Shown here piece by piece: positions 3,618 to 15,059 of a stretch of DNA of 39,244 bases. The stretch is from a virus. The translations under genes and the position numbers were made by a program. Location of the stretch: the UHGV virus genome UHGV-0144129; one strand, written 5' to 3'. Each line of letters opens with the position of its first letter. The first letter of the stretch is position 1. Under the pieces are notes generated by a model. The model was given only the letters and a program-made list of their open reading frames with translations, was not told the origin of the DNA and did not search any database.

Positions 3618-4013
3618 ATGACCACGATTGATCCGCCCTCATGGTATCAGTATTTATTTTATAACCCGCCTCTCAATACACCAAGAGATTGCGGTAAAGT
3701 GGAGCAGCATGATTACCAGCTTTATCTGGCGATAAATGATATTGAGCATACGAAAACGAAAGCAATGTCATCTAAGACCAATAGTATCTGCGAGCAGTTC
3801 CATAAAACGATACTGAACGAGTTTTATCAGGTGACGTTCCGCAAAAAGTTATATGATGATCTTGAAGCATTACAATCGGTTCTTGATGAATGGCGGGTTC
3901 ACTATAATAATGAGCGAACCCATCAGGGAAAAATGTGCAGTGGCCGAACGCCGATGGAAACGTTACTTGATGGAAAGCACATCTGGGATGAGAAAAACTT
4001 AAGCCAGATGTAA
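3618..4013 (+). pseudogene. C-terminal remnant of a DDE (rve-type) IS transposase
   Basis: KTNSICEQFHKTILNEFY ... YNNERTHQGKMCSGRTPMETL resembles the C-terminal end of an integrase-core domain (IS481/IS3-like). No N-terminal HTH or DDE core upstream. No inverted repeats recognised. Confidence 0.4.
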
Positions 4014-4100
4014 TCTGACAGATACCTTTATAAATAGCCGGTAATTGTCAGATCAGGTCTGATCTAATACAACTTAACTGTGTTATGAGCAATACTGAGG

Positions 4101-4877
4101 ATGGATATGGAACCAGAGAAATTTGCTGAAACTGCAATAGGATTTACCAAAAGCCCTCTTGGTATCATTGCACTCTTTATTGTTCTCGTTTATGGATTTG
4201 CCTCTTTCGTCGTTGGCTTTGGTAATGGCTTATCAGAGCATATAGCTCCCCTTATTTATTTCATGGTTTTCTTTCCTGTCATTGTGTTTCTTGGCTTTCT
4301 CTGGCTTGTTGCGAAACATCATAATAAGCTTTACGGGCCGTCAGATTTCAAAGATGAAAATAATTTTTTAAGAGCGCAAATAGCTACAGCAGCATCATTG
4401 ACCGCCGCCACAGCAAAACAGCCTGAAAATAGTGCAGGGGTCACTGAAAGCCAACTGCGAAAAATCGTCAACGTTGTATCCAATGCAAAACGGCAGAGTA
4501 AGCATGAAAAATGGCGAAATCGTATTTTATGGGTGGATGATCGACCAGAAAATAATGTTTACGAAAGACAGGCATTTGAGGCACAGGGAATAGAGTTCGC
4601 TTTAGCTCTTTCAACTGACGAAGCCTTAGAATTGTTAAAAACAAATAAGTTTGCAGCTATTATTTCGGATATGGATCGCAAAGAAGGGGCGCAAGAAGGT
4701 TATGTCTTACTAGAAAGATTACGCGCAATGGGAGACAAAACTCCTTTTATGATCTATGCGTCCTCAGATCTACCAGAGCACAAGAGAATGGCGAGAGAAA
4801 GAGGTGCAATTGGCTCCACTAATCGAGCAGAAGAACTCTTTCAAATTGTCATGGGTGCGATTACCAATGGCTCATAA
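4101..4877 (+). CDS. two-TM membrane protein with C-terminal CheY-like receiver (REC-like) domain
   Basis: Two hydrophobic helices at the N-terminus. C-terminus reads beta1 ILWVDD, beta3 AAIISDMDRKEG (Asp at acceptor position), beta4 FMIYASS, then a Lys-containing segment. AT-rich codon usage. Confidence 0.45.
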   Translation: MDMEPEKFAETAIGFTKSPLGIIALFIVLVYGFASFVVGFGNGLSEHIAPLIYFMVFFPVIVFLGFLWLVAKHHNKLYGPSDFKDENNFLRAQIATAASLTAATAKQPENSAGVTESQLRKIVNVVSNAKRQSKHEKWRNRILWVDDRPENNVYERQAFEAQGIEFALALSTDEALELLKTNKFAAIISDMDRKEGAQEGYVLLERLRAMGDKTPFMIYASSDLPEHKRMARERGAIGSTNRAEELFQIVMGAITNGS

Positions 4878-10053: not shown

Positions 10054-10156
10054 GTTAAATCTCCAGATAGTCGCAGCACCCGTTGCGCCGCATATCTGGT
10101 TATTCTATTACCTGAAAAACCACATATGGATAGATAATCCATAAATACGAAAAGAT

Positions 10157-10173
10157 ATTACCTTTCAGGTGAT
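10157..10173. promoter_or_regulatory. operator-like imperfect palindrome ATTACCT-TTC-AGGTGAT (family A)
   Basis: Member of a recurring TTACCT-N3-AGGTAA family. Lies about 50 bp upstream of the LexA box. Confidence 0.4.
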
Positions 10174-10209: not shown

Positions 10210-10229
10210 TACTGTATAAATATACAGTT
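10210..10229 (+). promoter_or_regulatory. LexA (SOS) box
   Basis: TACTGTATAAATATACAGTT is CTGT-N8-ACAG with an AT-rich spacer and TA flanks; 18 of 20 match the E. coli consensus TACTGTATATATATACAGTA. It sits about 20 bp upstream of the ATG at 10249. Confidence 0.65.
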
Positions 10230-10248: not shown

Positions 10249-10506
10249 ATGCAGCAGTATCACTATCCACTGGAAGACGGATTTACCGAAAGGATTCACA
10301 CGCCGGGAGGCGTCAGGTCACTGGTGGAGGGATCGCACTTGATGAAATTACTCCGGGATCTCGATAAGGATGGATTTAATGTCGATGGCCCACTTGCCGA
10401 ACTGACTGCACTGATTAACTACGTCACCAGCTCACAGATGTCTATGCGGGATCTGCAAACACATCTCGACTATTGTGCCGAACAATTACGAAAACAAACC
10501 CGGTAA
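10249..10506 (+). CDS. SOS-controlled mini-antirepressor (stand-alone copy of the Ant C-terminal domain)
   Basis: GGAG 8 nt upstream of ATG. The 85 aa product aligns over its whole length with the C-terminal about 80 aa of both Ant proteins (PLxxGxxxxIHxPxGV...DGxxVxGxxAELTxxxxYxxxxxxxxRDxQTHxxY). Confidence 0.55.
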   Translation: MQQYHYPLEDGFTERIHTPGGVRSLVEGSHLMKLLRDLDKDGFNVDGPLAELTALINYVTSSQMSMRDLQTHLDYCAEQLRKQTR

Positions 10507-10528
10507 ATTTAAAGGCCGCAAGAGCGGC

Positions 10529-11257
10529 CTATCGTTTCGCTTTGTGCTCATCCCAGCACGTTTTGCACCATGCCATTAAGCCGTCCGCATTTTGATTATT
10601 AGGGTAAAAGCTGGTTCGTTTTCTGCGGACATTACAAATTGGGCACCACTTCATATGGCGTGTATTCTTTGGGCCATCGAGACACCTTGCACACCATTTA
10701 GTCAATCCATCTGGATTTTTTGACGATTTCCTGAATTTTTCATATGGAAGGTTTATTCTGCATCGCAAGCACTGCTTGCTACCACTTGAAACTCTGTTAG
10801 CTGATTCTTCTTTTGGCGGCGATACAGAAGGTATTCTTGCTGGCTCTGATATTGCCTGAGGTGCTTTTTTAGATGACTGAGACGATATGTCATCACCAGG
10901 GAATCTTCCATGATATGCCGGACGCGTTGACACTCCAGGTGGAATCTCAGCTGTAAACGGCTTTGGCTGAATCAGTTGCCTCTCTTTTGCTAACTCCTGC
11001 TGTTTATAATATGTCTGGATTACCGCACTATCATAAGCAGGAGGTGCGGAAATATTAGGCGCATTACCTCCAGTTTTTTGAAACTGAGTAGAGGTGTGTT
11101 CTATCACCTGTGTACGATTAATCGTTATCTCCCCATCTTCGGTCTTTATCGTTTTGTTATGATTAACGACCGTACGATCAGAGATCTTAGTCTTGTTCTG
11201 GTTGATAACGTAAATAATCACCGCAACCACACCAACAACTATCCAGAAAACTTCCAT
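10529..11257 (-). CDS. membrane-anchored protein with tandem zinc-ribbon motifs
   Basis: SD GAGG before ATG. N-terminal TM helix, Pro/Ser-rich linker, then two repeats of a P/ADGLxxWCxxC unit with extra CxxC pairs. Transcribed immediately before the tail fibre gene. Confidence 0.5.
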   Translation of the reverse strand: MEVFWIVVGVVAVIIYVINQNKTKISDRTVVNHNKTIKTEDGEITINRTQVIEHTSTQFQKTGGNAPNISAPPAYDSAVIQTYYKQQELAKERQLIQPKPFTAEIPPGVSTRPAYHGRFPGDDISSQSSKKAPQAISEPARIPSVSPPKEESANRVSSGSKQCLRCRINLPYEKFRKSSKNPDGLTKWCARCLDGPKNTRHMKWCPICNVRRKRTSFYPNNQNADGLMAWCKTCWDEHKAKR

Positions 11258-11276
11258 TGCTTTTCCTCACAATAAC

Positions 11277-11293
11277 ATTACCTTAAAGGTAAT
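11277..11293. promoter_or_regulatory. operator-like perfect palindrome ATTACCT-TAA-AGGTAAT (family A), with an adjacent half-site at 11301-11311
   Basis: Perfect 7-3-7 inverted repeat 20 bp upstream of the ATG of the minus-strand gene ending at 11257. A TTTCAGGTGAT half-site follows 8 bp later. Confidence 0.45.
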
Positions 11294-11656
11294 ATCTTGC
11301 TTTCAGGTGATCAAGCGTTAAACGTAATCAACCAAATACGGTTGATTTTAATATTTCTTCGCGTTTATCATTACCTTTGCGGTAAATTTACATTGCACTC
11401 CTCTTGTGCCATAGTAATCGGGCACTGGCAAAATCCAGTGCCGGGATTGGTCTCCCGGATTACTAAGTGGCGCATACCACGCCAGACGTGGTTTTTTTAT
11501 GCGTATAGCACAGTCATGCCAGAATTATGGTGGGCTGAATGGGGGTCCGAAAGGACGCCGGTACCACTTAGGCCGGTAAGACCAACTCCGTTCAGTTCAC
11601 CACCATCTGATTGGTCTCAGCGGTGGTGATGTAATTCGCTAAGTGGAGACGCCATC

Positions 11657-12313
11657 ATGAACGCTCAACTCATCCCCGTATTCAACGGCACTATATCTAA
11701 CGAAACAGCCCTACTTTGTAATGCCCGCGATCTGCACGCTTTTTTAGGTGTTAAAAAGGTGTTTGCAGCATGGATTACAAATCGCATATCAGAATACGAA
11801 TTCATTGAAAATCAAGACTATATTTTGCTTTCCAATTTGGGAAAGCAAACATCTGGTAGAGGCGGCCACAACCGCAAAGAGTACCACCTCACCCTTGATA
11901 CAGCCAAAGAGCTGGCGATGGTCGAGCGTAACGAAAAAGGTCGCCAGGTGCGACGCTACTTCATTGAATGCGAGAAACGTTTAAGACAACAAGAAACAAA
12001 AGTGGAGAAGGTCTTGTCAGGCTTCATGCCCGCCATTATGGAGGCGATCAAGCTGGAAGACAAAAAAGAATACAGCGCCCCACTGAAGCCCGGCTACCGT
12101 AGCCTGATTCATTCGCCGTCTGGTGTTCTCGGCCTGACGGAGAACTCACTGCTGATGAATTTGCTGAACCAGTTACAGGAAGACGGGCACGATGTATCGG
12201 GCGCGGCGGCGGAGCTGACCACCATGTTCTGCTACATCGTTGGTGTGAGCAAATGCCTGCGTGATATCCAGACGCACGCGGAGTACATCAACGACAAGGC
12301 AGGATTCTTCTGA
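11657..12313 (+). CDS. antirepressor-like protein (second Ant; Bro-N/ORF6N-like N-domain plus shared Ant C-domain)
   Basis: N-terminal region ([22 protein letters not shown]...) resembles phage antirepressor / Bro N-terminal domains. The C-terminal 80 aa are near-identical to the C-terminus of the Ant at 13323-14267. Confidence 0.55.
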
Positions 12314-12337
12314 CAGAACGGCGGCACAGGGATGTGC
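12083..12337. repeat. left arm of a ~255 bp inverted repeat (3' end of ant2 plus 25 bp of 3' UTR)
   Basis: Reverse complement matches 13300-13555 at roughly 95 percent, by eye alignment. Confidence 0.7.
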
Positions 12338-12385
12338 CTTTAAATAATTCTGTACAGATTGCAGACTGGGGGTGAATAGCGTACT

Positions 12386-12402
12386 ATTACCTCACGGGTG
12401 AT
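12386..12402. promoter_or_regulatory. operator-like imperfect palindrome ATTACCT-CAC-GGGTGAT (family A)
   Basis: Same left half-site as the other family A sites; about 140 bp upstream of the gene at 12543. Confidence 0.3.
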
Positions 12403-12542
12403 CCATAGCGATTAGGCACCGATACAGGAGGAGCCCACATGAGAAAATTTGACGAGTACGAAGGCGTTTAACATTCGGATAGTTCATTTACCCTAATGGT
12501 AAATCCCGCTTAAAGAAGCATCTATATATTATGAGGTGATGT

Positions 12543-13178
12543 ATGCCACAACAACTGCTGAATCCGGCAAAGGTAACTGAGGTTTTCGCTCATCTGAACG
12601 AAACTCCAGACAACCGCGCCCTGTATTCAGAGTTAGTGAACGGCAACGATGTCACATCTGATGTCAAAGGCGTTTCTCTGGCTCCTGGATACCGCGTTGT
12701 CCGTGTAGACGATCGTAAGAAAGGCGAGATTCCACAGGCGCACTTTGAACTGTCATTGATAAATGACCTCACCGAAGAGGTAGTGTATTACAATCGTGTC
12801 ATTATCCAGCCTGACAGCTATCTTAACTGCCGTCCTGTCACGCAGATATTGGTATGGAGAACCCAGAAGCCTAAGCATCGTGCTGTGCTTCATGATTTCG
12901 CCGGCATCATCTTCATGAACTACCTCTTGGAACGGTACGATATCATCGTGTCAGATCGCAACCAGACTCATGAAGGCATGTCGTTCTGGCAGGCTCGCAT
13001 GTATGACGCACTGGAACTTGGCCTCCACCTCTATGGTTACGACATGATGACATGCGAGCTGATAGAGATGAATAACGAGGAAGAGCTTGAGAAAGGTGAA
13101 ACCTGGTTGTGGGGTGATGCGGAAAACTTCCAAAACAGATTGGCCATAATTTCAAAGCATAAGCTGCCAATAAAATAG
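12543..13178 (+). CDS. hypothetical protein (cargo between the inverted repeats)
   Basis: 211 aa ORF with normal codon usage and its own terminator. No motif recognised. Confidence 0.5.
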   Translation: MPQQLLNPAKVTEVFAHLNETPDNRALYSELVNGNDVTSDVKGVSLAPGYRVVRVDDRKKGEIPQAHFELSLINDLTEEVVYYNRVIIQPDSYLNCRPVTQILVWRTQKPKHRAVLHDFAGIIFMNYLLERYDIIVSDRNQTHEGMSFWQARMYDALELGLHLYGYDMMTCELIEMNNEEELEKGETWLWGDAENFQNRLAIISKHKLPIK

Positions 13179-13185
13179 TTCTTTA

Positions 13186-13208
13186 AGCCCGCGGCGCGGG
13201 CTTTTTTG
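13186..13208 (+). terminator. rho-independent terminator of the 12543-13178 gene
   Basis: gcccgcg-gcg-cgggc hairpin followed by T6. Confidence 0.55.
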
Positions 13209-13244
13209 TGTCTGCGGATTCCCGCCCGGGTGGCGGTGGTATTC

Positions 13245-13272
13245 GTTAAAAACAAGGCCGCGAAAGCGGCCT
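13245..13272 (-). terminator. rho-independent terminator of ant
   Basis: ggccgcgaaagcggcc hairpin; on the minus strand it is followed by a ttgttttt run. Confidence 0.5.
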
Positions 13273-13284
13273 GTGACATGTCAC
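13273..13284. repeat. perfect 12-bp palindrome GTGACATGTCAC (family B, copy 1)
   Basis: Exact palindrome; identical copies at 31802-31813 and 34253-34264. Confidence 0.5.
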
Positions 13285-13299
13285 GATAGTTCCGTTTTG

Positions 13300-13555
13300 C
13301 ACATCCCTGTGCCGCCGTTCTGTCAGAAGAACCCTGCCTTGTCGTTGATGTACTCCGCGTGGGTCTGGATATCACGCAGGCACTTGCTCACACCGACGAT
13401 GTAGCAGAACATGGTGGTCAGCTCCGCCGCCGCGCCCGATACATCGTGCCCGTCGTCCTGTAACTGGTTAAGCAGATTCATCAGCAGTGAGTTCTCCGTC
13501 AGGCCGAGAACACCCGACGGCGAATGAATCAGACTGCGGTAGCCGGGCTTCAGCG
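13300..13555. repeat. right arm of the ~255 bp inverted repeat (3' end of ant plus 3' UTR)
   Basis: See the left arm at 12083-12337. Confidence 0.7.
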
Positions 13556-14267
13556 GATAACCATAACATTTTGTCTGTGTTTTAATTGCCTCACGAAGCG
13601 CATCTAACATCTTGACTGCCACTTCATCATTCTCTGATGCAGATCCAGCAGGGAGATGCTCCCCTTCAAGCGGAACCCGAGCAACAAGAGACAACGCTTC
13701 GGCGAATTGATCTTCATCAATTTCTTTGTACGAACAGCCAAAATGAGATTTCAGTGACGACCACATGGTGATCATCGCCTTAGCCTGTTTTTCTTTTGGC
13801 AGAGACTGACCGCGACTCATGACGAGTTGTTTAATGGCTTCCTGCTGTTCAGTGGTTATTTTACCCGGCAACGCCTTTTTAGCTTTGCGTGGGTTAACCA
13901 CATGGCCTTTAGTCCAGTACTCGTAGAGCACATCGTCACACTCTTCCTGATACTGGATTACCTTGTCGCGGATTTCAGGGCGGACTTTGTTAGGGCTGAT
14001 GGTTTGCAACCAGCCAGCAAGTTTGCGAAGTGCCAAACAAATAATCTCACGGCGCTGTTCATCCCCAGGAAGCTGCATTGTGATTTTCACAATGCAGGTT
14101 TTAAACCGCTGCTTCATTTTCGTAAACTGTGAAGCCCAATCCATACCCATGCCTTCAACGATAGGTTTCATTGGGGTGTACGGTTCTCCGTTGTGATTGA
14201 CAACATAAAGTTCTGCGCCGTGGAATGGCACGTTGATAGTAGATACCGCTGTTGCTATACTCGTCAT
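13323..14267 (-). CDS. ant: antirepressor Ant (AntA-type N-domain plus shared C-domain)
   Basis: N-terminus (INVPFHGAELYVVNHNGEPYTPMKPIVEGMGMDW) is AntA-like. Directly downstream of the arc-like gene, as in P22 immI. Confidence 0.7.
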   Translation of the reverse strand: MTSIATAVSTINVPFHGAELYVVNHNGEPYTPMKPIVEGMGMDWASQFTKMKQRFKTCIVKITMQLPGDEQRREIICLALRKLAGWLQTISPNKVRPEIRDKVIQYQEECDDVLYEYWTKGHVVNPRKAKKALPGKITTEQQEAIKQLVMSRGQSLPKEKQAKAMITMWSSLKSHFGCSYKEIDEDQFAEALSLVARVPLEGEHLPAGSASENDEVAVKMLDALREAIKTQTKCYGYPLKPGYRSLIHSPSGVLGLTENSLLMNLLNQLQDDGHDVSGAAAELTTMFCYIVGVSKCLRDIQTHAEYINDKAGFF

Positions 14268-14339
14268 GTCGTTAATTCCTATACGTAGTTTTACGATACT
14301 GAAGCCCTGACGGTCTGGCCACCGTTGGGCTTCGCTGTT

Positions 14340-14507
14340 TTATGCCACGCTATTCTTCTCACCAGTGAGTCCATACACTTTCCTCAGCTGATAGATAATC
14401 TCTGTATTGAACTTTCGGCATTCTTTTTCGCCATTTCTTTCAATAGCTAACTTCACATCGTCCGGAAAACGAACTCGTCGTTGACACATCTCTTTTGCTT
14501 TTTGCAT
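14340..14507 (-). CDS. Arc-like ribbon-helix-helix repressor
   Basis: Start is the internal ATG (MQKAKEM...) with SD AAGGAG 7 nt upstream. The RRVRFPDDVKLAIERNGEK...NTEIIYQLRK region has an RHH beta-strand plus two helices. Sits between the mnt-like gene and ant. Confidence 0.55.
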   Translation of the reverse strand: MQKAKEMCQRRVRFPDDVKLAIERNGEKECRKFNTEIIYQLRKVYGLTGEKNSVA

Positions 14508-14627: not shown

Positions 14628-15059
14628 ATGAGCAGAGAAGATCCACAACTAAGGATCAGACTTCCCGTTGAAGTAAAAGAAAAAATAGAAATTTCTGCAA
14701 AAGCCAATAAGCGCTCAATGAACGCTGAAATAGTACAACGTCTTGACACCAGCTTTCTGAAAGATATTCATGAAGATGACGTAATTTCTGCTTATGAAGC
14801 AAAAATTATTGCAAACAATGCACGGCATGAAATATCAAATATTATTTTCAAAAGAACTTTTAATGAAATCAATAAGAAAATAACACTTGGACATACAAGT
14901 TTTTATATAAACCTTAATGACCTTGAACTGGAATCACTTGCAGATAATGATTACCAGATCATCTTTGAAAAAACATTTAATAAGCTCAATGAACTAGGTT
15001 ACATCATCTGTGAAAACTCATGGGATGCAGATGGTTTTGGAATTGAAATACCTGAATAG
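14628..15059 (+). CDS. mnt: Mnt-like ribbon-helix-helix repressor with a long AT-rich C-terminal extension
   Basis: MSREDPQLRIRLPVEVKEKIEISAKANKRSMNAEIVQRLDTSF closely parallels the N-terminus of P22 Mnt (sequence recalled from memory). Divergent from arc-ant. About 60 extra C-terminal residues compared with P22 Mnt. Confidence 0.6.
   Translation: MSREDPQLRIRLPVEVKEKIEISAKANKRSMNAEIVQRLDTSFLKDIHEDDVISAYEAKIIANNARHEISNIIFKRTFNEINKKITLGHTSFYINLNDLELESLADNDYQIIFEKTFNKLNELGYIICENSWDADGFGIEIPE

Follow-up and report, generated by a model that had tools for sequence, protein, structure and literature searches.

A shared SPC32H-type antirepressor domain forms a long inverted repeat, and a probable recombination anchor, in a Uetakevirus-like prophage of Escherichia coli

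Introduction

Why do two convergent antirepressor (ant) genes of a single prophage end in almost the same sequence, and does the inverted repeat that they form around a cargo gene act as a genetic switch? The question arises from the virus genome UHGV-0144129, a stretch of 39,244 nucleotides hereafter called the window and representing a Uetakevirus-like prophage of E. coli, from the epsilon15/phiV10/SPC32H group. A preliminary description, made from the sequence alone, proposed that one antirepressor domain occurs in three genes and that homologous recombination between two of its copies could invert the intervening segment, giving a possible phase-variable arrangement independent of any dedicated invertase. 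Here, we examine the domain, its controls, the repeat and its natural variants in related genomes.

Results

Three antirepressor genes share one effector domain

The genes carrying the shared domain are the following:

10249-10506, plus strand: stand-alone antirepressor (the "third copy"), 85 aa, orthologue of SPC32H Ant, phrog_450
11657-12313, plus strand: left antirepressor, 218 aa, AntA N-module (residues 22-92) fused to an SPC32H-Ant-like C-domain
13323-14267, minus strand: right antirepressor, 314 aa, P22_AR_N N-module (residues 12-123) fused to the same type of C-domain as the left ant

The coordinates first given for the two fusion genes proved exact, and their N-terminal domains are indeed unrelated, as the Pfam assignments to AntA (E 4.2e-26) and P22_AR_N (E 9.6e-45) show. 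Pfam holds no model for the shared C-domain, the right ant has no Pfam match past residue 123, and PHROGs lists phrog_450 as of unknown function. The domain does match Ant of the Salmonella phage SPC32H, which binds the phage repressor Rep and dissociates its DNA-binding tetramer (PMC9638917). In this regard, the stand-alone protein aligns with chain 5D50_E over residues 2-84 (E 1.4e-46), and the fused C-domain covers residues 3-79 of that 86-residue chain (E 4.9e-15). The effector role suggested for the shared domain thus gains support from homology along the whole length of a protein whose complex with Rep has been solved (5D50). The third copy is present and diverged as claimed, sharing 45% protein and 58.6% DNA identity with the fused C-domain and a longest common word of 9 nt. 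We infer that the fusions also bind Rep, through a C-domain just 45% identical to the validated Ant. As the rep region lies beyond the right end of the window, the target of the antirepressors is deduced from relatives, among which TL-2011b encodes in gp10 a full-length Rep homologue (E 6.6e-42 against 5D50_A).

Comparison with related prophages bears out the idea that the N-domains are swappable. The same C-domain is found behind four different N-modules (AntA, Bro-N, ORF6N or P22_AR_N) or as a stand-alone protein. Conversely, some relatives match the right ant at residues 1-224 only and continue into a different, canonical P22-type C-terminus, while the single-ant relatives phiV10 and 20AR0300 have no P22-type module.

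Each copy lies behind a different control

The elements found around the three genes are listed below:

10158-10172: probable Rep operator palindrome, TTACC-N5-GGTGA, upstream of the stand-alone ant
10212-10227, plus strand: LexA (SOS) box CTGTATAAATATACAG, found by pattern search, 21 nt 5' of the stand-alone ant ATG
11278-11292: probable Rep operator palindrome, found by motif search
11371-11385: palindrome, probably a Rep operator, that overlaps promoter-like sites 5' of isrK
11422-11498, plus strand: isrK-like sRNA (Rfam RF01394, 67.7 bits, gathering threshold 50) with its own terminator at 11476-11492
11523-11607, plus strand: C4-type antisense RNA of the P1/P7 immI type (Rfam RF01695, 61.2 bits, gathering threshold 45)
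12387-12401: operator-like palindrome in the left-inner end-piece of the cargo cassette
12488-12502: second operator-like palindrome, upstream of the cargo open reading frame (ORF)
14269-14336, plus strand: sar antisense RNA (Rfam RF00262, 45.2 bits, gathering threshold 43), across the right ant start
14340-14507, minus strand: Arc-like ribbon-helix-helix repressor (phrog_228, Arc-like), with a Pant-like promoter at 14571-14543
14628-15059, plus strand: Mnt-like Arc-family DNA-binding protein (Pfam Arc, E 1.1e-14), divergent from arc-ant

The ant gene of SPC32H is LexA-controlled (Kim and Ryu, 2013, as cited in PMC7380047), and the stand-alone copy of the window has a LexA box in the matching place. 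The pattern search returned no LexA box at either fusion gene; RNA or Arc controls are found there instead. The C4-type RNA lies directly 5' of the left ant, about 50 nt before its ATG. The sar RNA is accompanied by a promoter-like site (14233-14261) and a terminator (14312-14331), and the isrK, C4 and sar elements were found again in relatives, with sar reaching 57 bits in SCU-387. In line with the assignment of the Arc-like gene, gp41 of TL-2011b is annotated as "Arc-like repressor". Since the C-domain is homologous to SPC32H Ant and the third copy is its LexA-controlled orthologue, the prophage appears to place one Rep-binding effector under three controls.

The palindrome with an N5 spacer, probably the Rep operator, was counted 9 times in the window, where 0.07 occurrences would be expected, and TL-2011b has the motif twice in its rep-cro intergenic region; the same search with an N6 spacer gave chance-level matches only. 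A 22-nt inverted repeat (10152-10173 and 11277-11298) was considered as a second invertible segment and rejected, given that it consists of two copies of this palindrome.

The convergent fusion genes form a 258-nt inverted repeat around a self-contained cassette

12080-12337, plus strand: left arm of the inverted repeat, comprising the entire effector domain and 24 nt of 3' UTR
12338-12399, plus strand: left-inner end-piece of the cassette, conserved and common to most cargo types
12543-13178, plus strand: cargo ORF, 211 aa, GNAT (acetyltransferase) fold
13185-13213, plus strand: predicted intrinsic terminator at the end of the left-ant and cargo transcription unit
13211-13298, minus strand: right-inner end-piece, conserved, holding the minus-strand terminator of the right ant (13272-13255)
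13299-13556, minus strand: right arm of the inverted repeat

Because the fusion genes are convergent, their shared domain and 24 nt of 3' UTR form an inverted repeat. The repeat had been read as about 255 bp at about 95% identity; base-by-base comparison gives arms of 258 nt each with 11 mismatches (95.7%), separated by a spacer of 961 nt, and a similarity of this length and degree is far beyond chance. Perfect blocks between the arms measure 59, 39, 33, 29 and 20 nt. Identity starts abruptly at the codons for P-L-K-P-G-Y, a domain boundary, and ends 24 nt 3' of each TGA, close to the 25 bp or so initially estimated, the flanks beyond being unrelated. Every related locus with two such ant genes has an equivalent repeat, of 253-258 nt at 93-98% identity.

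The segment between the arms carries, as had been claimed, an independent gene and two terminators. The terminators lie back-to-back, one on the plus strand at 13185-13203 and the other on the minus strand at 13272-13255, and the stop codon of the left ant is not followed by a strong terminator. Neither the cargo ORFs nor the neighbouring ORFs have a match in PADLOC or NCBIfam. Across 20 loci, nine cargo types are found between the arms, and at least nine different segments thus use this slot. The end-pieces are more constant: the right-inner piece adjoins the right arm in 18 loci, the window included, and ETEC4085 and SCU-387 alone have it as the reverse complement next to the left arm.

The anatomy of the arms bears on whether the repeat acts at the RNA level. 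Read-through transcripts could fold into a 258-bp self-complementary stem, or act as antisense to both ant mRNAs, and so couple the two genes through RNase III or antisense pairing. The identity does extend over 24 nt of 3' UTR, in which a hairpin is conserved (GGCACA-GGGA-TGTGCC in the left arm), the left ant has no strong terminator after its stop, and three antisense or small RNAs are already at work in this region. Nevertheless, the two strong terminators inside the cassette are placed so as to block read-through, and of the 11 codons that differ between the arms of the window 10 are synonymous and one is non-synonymous, which fits constraint at the protein level. We therefore regard an RNA-level role as very unlikely.

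The cassette has been inverted in nature

The genomes of the E. coli strains ETEC4085 and UTAK-6 are collinear and 99.6-99.8% identical in the flanks of the locus, while the 1,521-bp segment from arm through cargo to arm aligns in reverse only (98.5%; cargo 99.8%). The collinear and inverted alignments overlap through both arms of about 257 bp. In SCU-387 both conserved end-pieces are exchanged, the left-inner piece being flipped and adjoining the right arm, and the breakpoints fall inside the arms as in the ETEC4085/UTAK-6 pair; SCU-387 is a second, independent case of inversion. The proposal that recombination between the arms inverts the segment is therefore supported as an evolutionary event, and so is the predicted swap of 3' sequences, for inversion exchanges whatever lies 3' of each ant gene, the strong terminator included.

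Several candidates for further inversions were rejected. Apparent inverted arrangements in 35 + 11 genomes, with a left-type flank, an arm and a reverse-complemented cargo end, mostly belong to a class 3 architecture, in which the right-hand partner is a second isrK-C4-ant module and the cargo is in standard orientation relative to the tail-fibre side. About 10 lookalikes of SCU-387 also proved to be class 3, so that they do not constitute a clone of inverted loci. ETEC1749 was likewise dismissed as an independent third inversion, its right half being common to ETEC4085 and its cassette a composite.

One may ask whether the inverted isoforms are artefacts of assembly, given that short-read assemblers can mis-orient a 1-kb segment between 258-bp repeats and that the arms of ETEC4085 are unusually similar (98%), as partial collapse would produce. 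Against this, all records have RefSeq "complete genome" status, the inverted right junction recurs in ETEC1749 at 96% identity, SCU-387 is a different inverted locus, and 5 positions still differ between the ETEC4085 arms. An artefact is, in our opinion, extremely unlikely.

Orientation is strongly skewed

Among 33 complete E. coli genomes with this architecture, the standard junction is present in 25 and the inverted one in 3, the latter counted with right-junction queries that required the P22-type flank; these three trace to two events. All 14 IMG/VR loci are standard. The genome records are RefSeq "complete genome" assemblies, which display the majority orientation only, and flipping in a minority of cells is therefore not visible in these counts. 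A flipped form of the cargo of the window was absent among 5,426 genomes, and the flipped version of the SCU-387 junction occurs only in other lineages, about 95% identical.

These numbers weigh on the initial suggestion of phase variation. In a fuller form of this reading, flips at appreciable frequency within lysogen populations, made with no invertase, would toggle the cargo between the C4-controlled and Arc-controlled ant operons and exchange their terminators as a form of bet-hedging. Several features would suit such a system: both orientations occur naturally between near-identical flanks, RecA-type recombination can use perfect blocks of the length seen here (up to 59 nt), genes for RecT and exonuclease VIII are present in relatives, and the cargo is co-directional with an ant gene upstream of it in either orientation, with the strong terminator passing to the other gene. 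The heavy skew, the derivation of the three inverted genomes from two events, the absence of the flipped window cargo and the confinement of the flipped SCU-387 junction to other lineages all argue against it. In addition, tblastn with a Hin query gave no match in the window, none of the genes of the complete relative TL-2011b is annotated as an invertase or resolvase, and neither short crossover sites nor an enhancer were apparent. Site-specific inversion was accordingly rejected, there being no recombinase and the crossovers lying inside long homology. The phase-variable arrangement is not upheld, and we consider it unlikely.

The arms are mosaics of two haplotypes

Across loci, the arms are mosaics of a "left" (L) and a "right" (R) haplotype. 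The right arm of ETEC4085 is R-type at positions 3-4 and L-type afterwards, and its left arm is L-type throughout, a combination that departs from a simple reciprocal one-crossover pattern; accounting for the uniformly L-type left arm requires either a tract of conversion or an ancestor whose arms were already homogenised. Arm identities between loci are 95.6% (L-L), 95.9% (R-R) and 94.7-95.1% (L-R), so nearly equal that left and right copies do not separate into paralogue clades of their own, and the two arms of one locus are slightly more alike than arms of different loci (permutation p = 0.006). As judged from these alignments, the arms bear the footprints of gene conversion, or concerted evolution.

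Alternatively, the inverted loci could be products of cassette replacement instead of intramolecular inversion. As the two arms are one sequence in opposite orientations, two crossovers with a relative that co-infects or already resides in the cell could insert a foreign cassette either way round. This reading draws on the great variety of cargo enclosed by identical arms (20 loci hold nine types), on arm alleles that act as one pool across loci, on the cassette of ETEC1749, a composite of two convergent half-cassettes that needs inter-genome recombination, and on the SCU-387 cassette (cargo and TM ORF), of which many class 3 prophages carry a 99.5-99.6% identical version next to a Bro-N ant. 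On the other hand, ETEC4085 and UTAK-6 agree in both flanks (99.6-99.8%) and cargo (99.8%), which one flip within a molecule explains most simply. We hold replacement to be a serious if doubtful alternative. A double crossover with another phage in flipped register would yield the very product of an intramolecular inversion; the two routes draw on one substrate and are not mutually exclusive.

Discussion

A model for the origin and the effects of the repeat

The observed homologies, the anatomy of the locus, its natural inverted isoforms and its mosaic arms lead us to propose a model in which the repeat arose as a by-product when convergent genes came to share an effector domain, and serves as a recombination anchor, not as a phase switch; as an explanation of the whole locus, we consider this likely. 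The stand-alone 85-aa Ant behind its LexA box would provide the SOS input. The AntA::Ant fusion would respond to the isrK and C4 antisense RNAs, like the P1/P7 immI and Gifsy-1 isrK-anrP modules, and the P22_AR_N::Ant fusion would operate within a P22-type mnt / arc-ant / sar module. In the latter, the resident effector would have taken the place of the P22 C-terminus, a change that presumably directs the module at the Rep of this phage family. The cassette between the convergent fusions is self-contained: its 5' piece bears operator-like palindromes, a cargo gene follows, and two terminators stand back-to-back.

Once formed, the repeat would offer a substrate for general homologous recombination by RecA or by phage RecT/Exo. 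Such recombination may, by gene conversion, maintain a single pool of alleles for the left and right copies, allow N-modules and cargo cassettes to pass between phages and, occasionally, invert the cassette. An inversion would shift the cargo from behind the C4-controlled ant to behind the Arc-controlled ant and hand the strong terminator to the other ant gene. Which pathway acts, and what follows for expression, are the parts of the model that we infer. In this regard, the cassette seems to own its operator-bearing 5' region, and the effect of flipping on expression may thus be small.

A bolder version of the model would see in the arm-cassette-arm arrangement a functional switch and exchange platform, independent of any invertase and flipped by RecA or RecT at a measurable rate. 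If this were so, flips in lysogens or during lytic replication would move cargo of GNAT-fold or toxin type between C4-RNA-controlled and Arc/Mnt-controlled operons, Uetakevirus-like phages could acquire the cassettes of relatives in either orientation, and the locus, together with the LexA-controlled Ant, would amount to a three-input reconfigurable hub for induction and anti-immunity. We deem it improbable that the arrangement works in this manner.

Implications for prophage control and annotation

Linking the Pfam-less phrog_450 domain to a solved repressor-antirepressor complex allows us to propose a function for it. One repressor-inactivating effector placed under SOS/LexA, C4/isrK RNAs and Mnt/Arc/sar would constitute a compact, multi-signal control of prophage induction and anti-immunity. 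The capture of the resident effector domain would likewise explain how an immI module of P22 type functions in a phage whose repressor is non-lambdoid. Furthermore, the sharing of an effector by convergent genes would create an intragenomic recombination joint, whose footprints are seen in inverted segments, in converted arms, in the turnover of cassettes and in derived arrangements that hold two modules of C4 type. Hundreds of E. coli genomes, clinical lineages included, carry the region, and annotation pipelines that label such genes "BRO-N", "AntA/AntB" or "antirepressor N-terminal domain" overlook their common effector.

Comparison with known systems

A close counterpart is the Ant-Rep pair of the epsilon15-like phage SPC32H (PDB 5D50/5D4Z). 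The stand-alone ant of the window is its orthologue, with the LexA box in front, both fusions carry a C-domain homologous over the whole Ant fold, and relatives encode a homologous Rep. The window differs in that the Ant fold is also C-terminal in two larger proteins with non-SOS controls. To our knowledge, and within the literature that we searched, the Ant fold has not been described as the C-domain of larger fusions with N-modules.

With the immI region of P22, the window shares P22_AR_N, the upstream Arc-like gene, the divergent Mnt-like gene, sar and the gene order, whereas the C-terminus of its P22-type Ant is replaced by the SPC32H-type domain. It likewise resembles P1/P7 immI and the isrK-orf45-anrP module of Gifsy-1, whose control logic has been described (PMC4825925), in having isrK-like and C4-like RNAs directly 5' of an ant on the same strand. 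In the window, expression of the ant would need read-through of the isrK terminator, and the module differs in its SPC32H-type effector and in an N-module that varies (AntA, Bro-N, ORF6N).

As in Hin/hix, Gin/G of Mu, Cin/C of P1 and the shufflons, a phage segment of about 1 kb lies between inverted repeats and occurs in both orientations among isolates. Those switches use sites of about 26 bp, in contrast to the 258-bp coding repeats of the window, which is also set apart by having no invertase gene, by its strongly skewed orientation and by breakpoints located anywhere in the arms, with conversion tracts.

Domain shuffling among the Bro-N, KilA-N(ORF6N), AntA and P22_AR_N phage regulators was reportedly recognised by Iyer et al. 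in 2002, and the modular theory of phage evolution holds that "boundary sequences" serve as recombination joints in mosaic phages. Here too, unrelated N-modules meet a conserved C-module at a sharp junction, and the C-module may act as the homology anchor. What differs is that two convergent fusions coexist in one genome around a cargo slot, with documented inversion, and hence the homology anchor is at the same time an intragenomic inverted repeat.

Structure of the inverted repeat

The two convergent antirepressor genes of the window (left and right ant) share their 3' ends, which form the arms of an inverted repeat around a separate cargo gene:

11657-12313, plus strand: left ant, 218 aa (ORF list)
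12080-12337 and 13299-13556: left and right arm, the sole large inverted repeat given by the repeat finder
12543-13178, plus strand: cargo ORF between the ants, 211 aa (ORF list)
13185-13203, plus strand: terminator inside the segment
13272-13255, minus strand: terminator inside the segment, back to back with the former
13323-14267, minus strand: right ant, 314 aa (ORF list)

The repeat finder reports arms of 258 nt, 96% complementary and spaced by 961 nt, and base-by-base comparison counts 11 mismatches (95.7% identity), with perfect blocks of 59, 39, 33, 29 and 20 nt. Identity sets in at the codons for P-L-K-P-G-Y and ends 24 nt past each stop codon; the sequences immediately beyond are unrelated to each other. 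Upstream of the shared part, the left protein is Pfam AntA (residues 22-92, E 4e-26) and the right one P22_AR_N (residues 12-123, E 1e-44). A third, stand-alone copy of the shared C-domain (10249-10506) is diverged, with 45% protein and 58.6% DNA identity and a longest common word of 9 nt, and is predicted to be unable to recombine with the arms. The preliminary description, which had read arms of about 255 bp, some 95% alike and running past both stops, unrelated N-terminal domains, a diverged third copy, and an independent gene with two terminators between the arms, was right in every element to within a few bases.

Ten of the 11 codons that differ between the window arms are synonymous, which indicates purifying selection on the shared domain and a duplication that is not very recent. 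The 24 nt after the stops (12314-12337, 13299-13322) do not differ between the window's two arms and include the hairpin GGCACA-GGGA-TGTGCC; in the loci compared, two haplotypes of this tail occur, CAGAACGG... and C-GGGCGG..., each found on either arm.

Identity of the shared domain

The shared C-terminus has no Pfam match, and its PHROGs family, phrog_450 (~88-aa proteins), is labelled 'unknown function'. The stand-alone copy (85 aa) matches chain E ('Anti-repressor protein', 86 aa) of PDB 5D50, the Rep-Ant complex of Salmonella phage SPC32H (residues 2-84, E 1.4e-46), and the C-terminal 84 residues of left ant match residues 3-79 of the same chain (E 4.9e-15). Synthesis of the SPC32H antirepressor is under LexA control (PMC7380047), and the stand-alone ant has a perfect SOS-box core, CTGTATAAATATACAG, 21 nt 5' of its ATG. 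Taken together, these matches and the LexA box indicate that the C-domain is the whole antirepressor and the third copy its canonical, SOS-controlled form.

In related loci the C-domain occurs alone or behind AntA (10 genes), Bro-N (17), P22_AR_N (28) or ORF6N (1). The earlier proposal of swappable N-domains on a constant effector agrees with this variety, and its effector part is strongly backed by homology to the experimentally characterised SPC32H Ant. The P22-type Ants of other phages match over residues 1-224 only and end differently; the P22-type module appears to have swapped its own C-terminus for the resident effector.

Comparative anatomy of the locus

The region is matched in 1,263 of 5,426 complete E. 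coli genomes. Among the loci compared (13 annotated and 80 from IMG/VR), three classes were distinguished:

Class 1: isrK-C4-ant unit only (phiV10, strain 20AR0300)
Class 2: window-like, with isrK-C4-ant, cargo and P22-type ant-arc-mnt (33 complete genomes with a P22_AR_N::C-domain gene)
Class 3: second complete isrK-C4-ant unit as convergent partner (UTME-9, strain 315, CE0007a)

In class 3 the second unit adjoins what remains of the P22-type ant, a flipped 5' fragment, and a larger inversion or a duplication is a possible origin. In these loci (L088, L090 and L091, respectively) the second unit is inverted and arc and mnt are lost; the class is common, for instance in ST131-labelled and MS-series genomes.

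All two-unit loci have arms of 253-258 nt with 93-98% identity. Nine unrelated cargo types lie between the arms in 20 loci, among them a YafO-family toxin, DUF4760, DUF2335, three small ORFs and the 211-aa ORF of the window, framed by two conserved end-pieces: one of 62 nt at the left arm, holding an operator-like palindrome, and one of 88 nt at the right arm, holding the minus-strand terminator. Upstream of the window's cargo ORF, between the two operator-like palindromes, lies a ten-codon ORF (12439-12471, MRKFDEYEGV) that may encode a leader peptide; its ribosome-binding site, AGGAGG, is strong.

Elsewhere in the window, an 864-bp indel (10501-11364) carries a minus-strand ORF of 242 aa (10529-11257, phrog_6762) with an N-terminal TM helix and a C-terminal Zn-ribbon/HNH-like repeat region; the indel also occurs in AHB29, ETEC4085 and TL-2011b and is missing from UTAK-6, OkiPb01684 and 20AR0300. 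Beside the lysis genes, a transposase (rve-like) fragment (3618-4013) and a 258-aa protein (4101-4877) whose N-terminus holds transmembrane helices and whose C-terminal region is receiver-like make 3618-4877 look like another moron region. A tRNA-Arg (anticodon TCT, 31103-31179) lies between structural and terminase genes.

Inversion and exchange between the arms

Comparison of related prophages indicates that the arm-cargo-arm segment has inverted in nature, as the preliminary description had held possible. ETEC4085 (L002) and UTAK-6 (L003) share the same left ant protein, arc, mnt, structural genes and three cargo proteins, the cargo genes being reversed in order and opposite in strand. Their flanks are collinear (99.8% and 99.6%), whereas a 1,521-bp stretch of arms plus cargo aligns in reverse only (98.5%). 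Both arms are covered by collinear and inverted alignments alike, a signature of exchange inside the repeats. A second case, SCU-387 (L089), carries different cargo: each end-piece now adjoins the opposite arm, and the minus strand encodes its cargo ORF, which is homologous to that of the window at 30% identity. ETEC1749 has the inverted right junction of ETEC4085 with a forward YafO half-cassette at left; since both come from the same study and have the same flanking proteins, they were counted as one event. The composite cargo of ETEC1749 (L093, 2741-4331) joins this forward YafO half, on the left ant side, to a reverse three-ORF-cassette half on the right ant side and lacks both conserved end-pieces.

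A Hin query detected no Hin-type invertase in the window, and none is annotated in the complete relative TL-2011b, which encodes RecT and exonuclease VIII. Arm haplotypes are mosaic across loci. The right arm of ETEC4085 has 'right-type' bases at positions 3-4 only and 'left-type' ones thereafter, its left arm equals that of UTAK-6 over the full length, and arm-arm identity is 98.1%, versus 93.8% in UTAK-6. Either a crossover accompanied by a long conversion tract or inversion in an ancestor whose arms had already been homogenised would account for this. Further chimeric arms are the right ones of L016, L007 and L012 and the left ones of the window, L009 and L020.

Mean arm identity over 19 loci
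Left-left, between loci: 95.6%
Right-right, between loci: 95.9%
Left-right, between loci: 94.7%
Left-right, same locus: 95.1% (permutation p = 0.006)

Paralogous arms therefore differ no more than orthologous ones, which points to continual exchange between positions, within and between genomes. The arms are the same sequence read in opposite directions, so a double crossover with a related phage can equally bring in a cassette in either orientation, and its products are identical to those of intramolecular inversion.

Frequency of inversion

The standard junction, made up of the cargo end with the terminator, the arm and the P22-type flank, was found in 25 of 33 complete E. coli genomes and the inverted right junction in one of SCU-387 type and two of ETEC4085 type, these counts giving the majority form, as assemblies are blind to minority orientations. 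All 14 two-armed IMG/VR loci are in standard orientation. A synthetic flipped left junction of the window matched no genome over at least 80% of its length; the flipped SCU-387 junction matched 14, at ~95% identity only, which are other lineages. Counts of 35 and 11 'inverted' genomes were rejected, as class 3 loci mimic the junction. True switches show their orientations in a roughly even mix. The proposed phase-variable arrangement is not supported by these counts, and the picture suggested by majority orientation is one of rare, lineage-fixed events.

Regulation of the locus

The phage is a member of the epsilon15/phiV10 group, with TL-2011b, phiv142-3 and phiV10 (Uetakevirus) as best phage matches. 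The window ends just short of the immunity region; in TL-2011b, gp10 is a full-length homologue of the SPC32H repressor Rep (versus 5D50_A, E 6.6e-42). The 15-nt palindrome TTACC-N5-GGTRA occurs nine times in the window (0.07 expected), starting at 10158, 11278, 11371, 12387, 12488, 30766, 33974, 38295 and 38357, and in TL-2011b two copies lie between rep and cro and two more just past rep. Of the window's nine, five belong to the ant region: one precedes the stand-alone ant, two precede isrK and two the cargo ORF. The palindrome is probably the Rep operator, which would imply that Rep directly controls both the ant genes and the cargo cassette; the operator-like sites suggest that the cassette has its own, putative Rep-controlled promoter.

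In standard orientation, left ant is followed by the short arm hairpin, a weak T-tract, the operator-bearing piece, the cargo ORF and the plus-strand terminator, and the strong terminator of right ant lies 27 nt past the arm. Inversion would pass the strong terminator to left ant and let right ant read toward the cargo; cargo genes are co-directional with the preceding ant gene in all loci examined. The paired terminators are predicted to block read-through, which would otherwise yield a 258-bp RNA stem or RNA antisense to both ant messages.

Rfam, searched at gathering thresholds, and gene calls place further elements around the ants:

11422-11498: isrK, directly upstream of left ant (Rfam)
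11523-11607: C4 antisense RNA, directly upstream of left ant (Rfam)
14269-14336: sar RNA, antisense to the right ant start (Rfam)
14340-14507, minus strand: Arc-like gene, upstream of right ant
14628-15059, plus strand: Arc-family (Mnt-like) gene, divergent, upstream of right ant

Promoter-like sites occur where Pant and Psar are expected. One phage would thus place one Rep-binding effector under three controls, LexA, C4/isrK and Mnt/Arc/sar, to us the most interesting by-product of this analysis; our literature search found no description of such a combination. Each flanking unit has a known counterpart. With isrK and C4 directly upstream, the left unit resembles P1/P7 immI and the isrK-orf45-anrP module of Gifsy-1, in which read-through of the isrK terminator and IsrK in trans enable antirepressor translation (PMC4825925), and the right unit, with ant, the Arc-like gene, the divergent Mnt-like gene and sar, is the P22 immI module. 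Together, our findings are best described as a variant of things already known: an antirepressor locus of mosaic build in which the shared effector domain also acts as a recombination joint, its two copies forming inverted repeats on either side of a moron slot.
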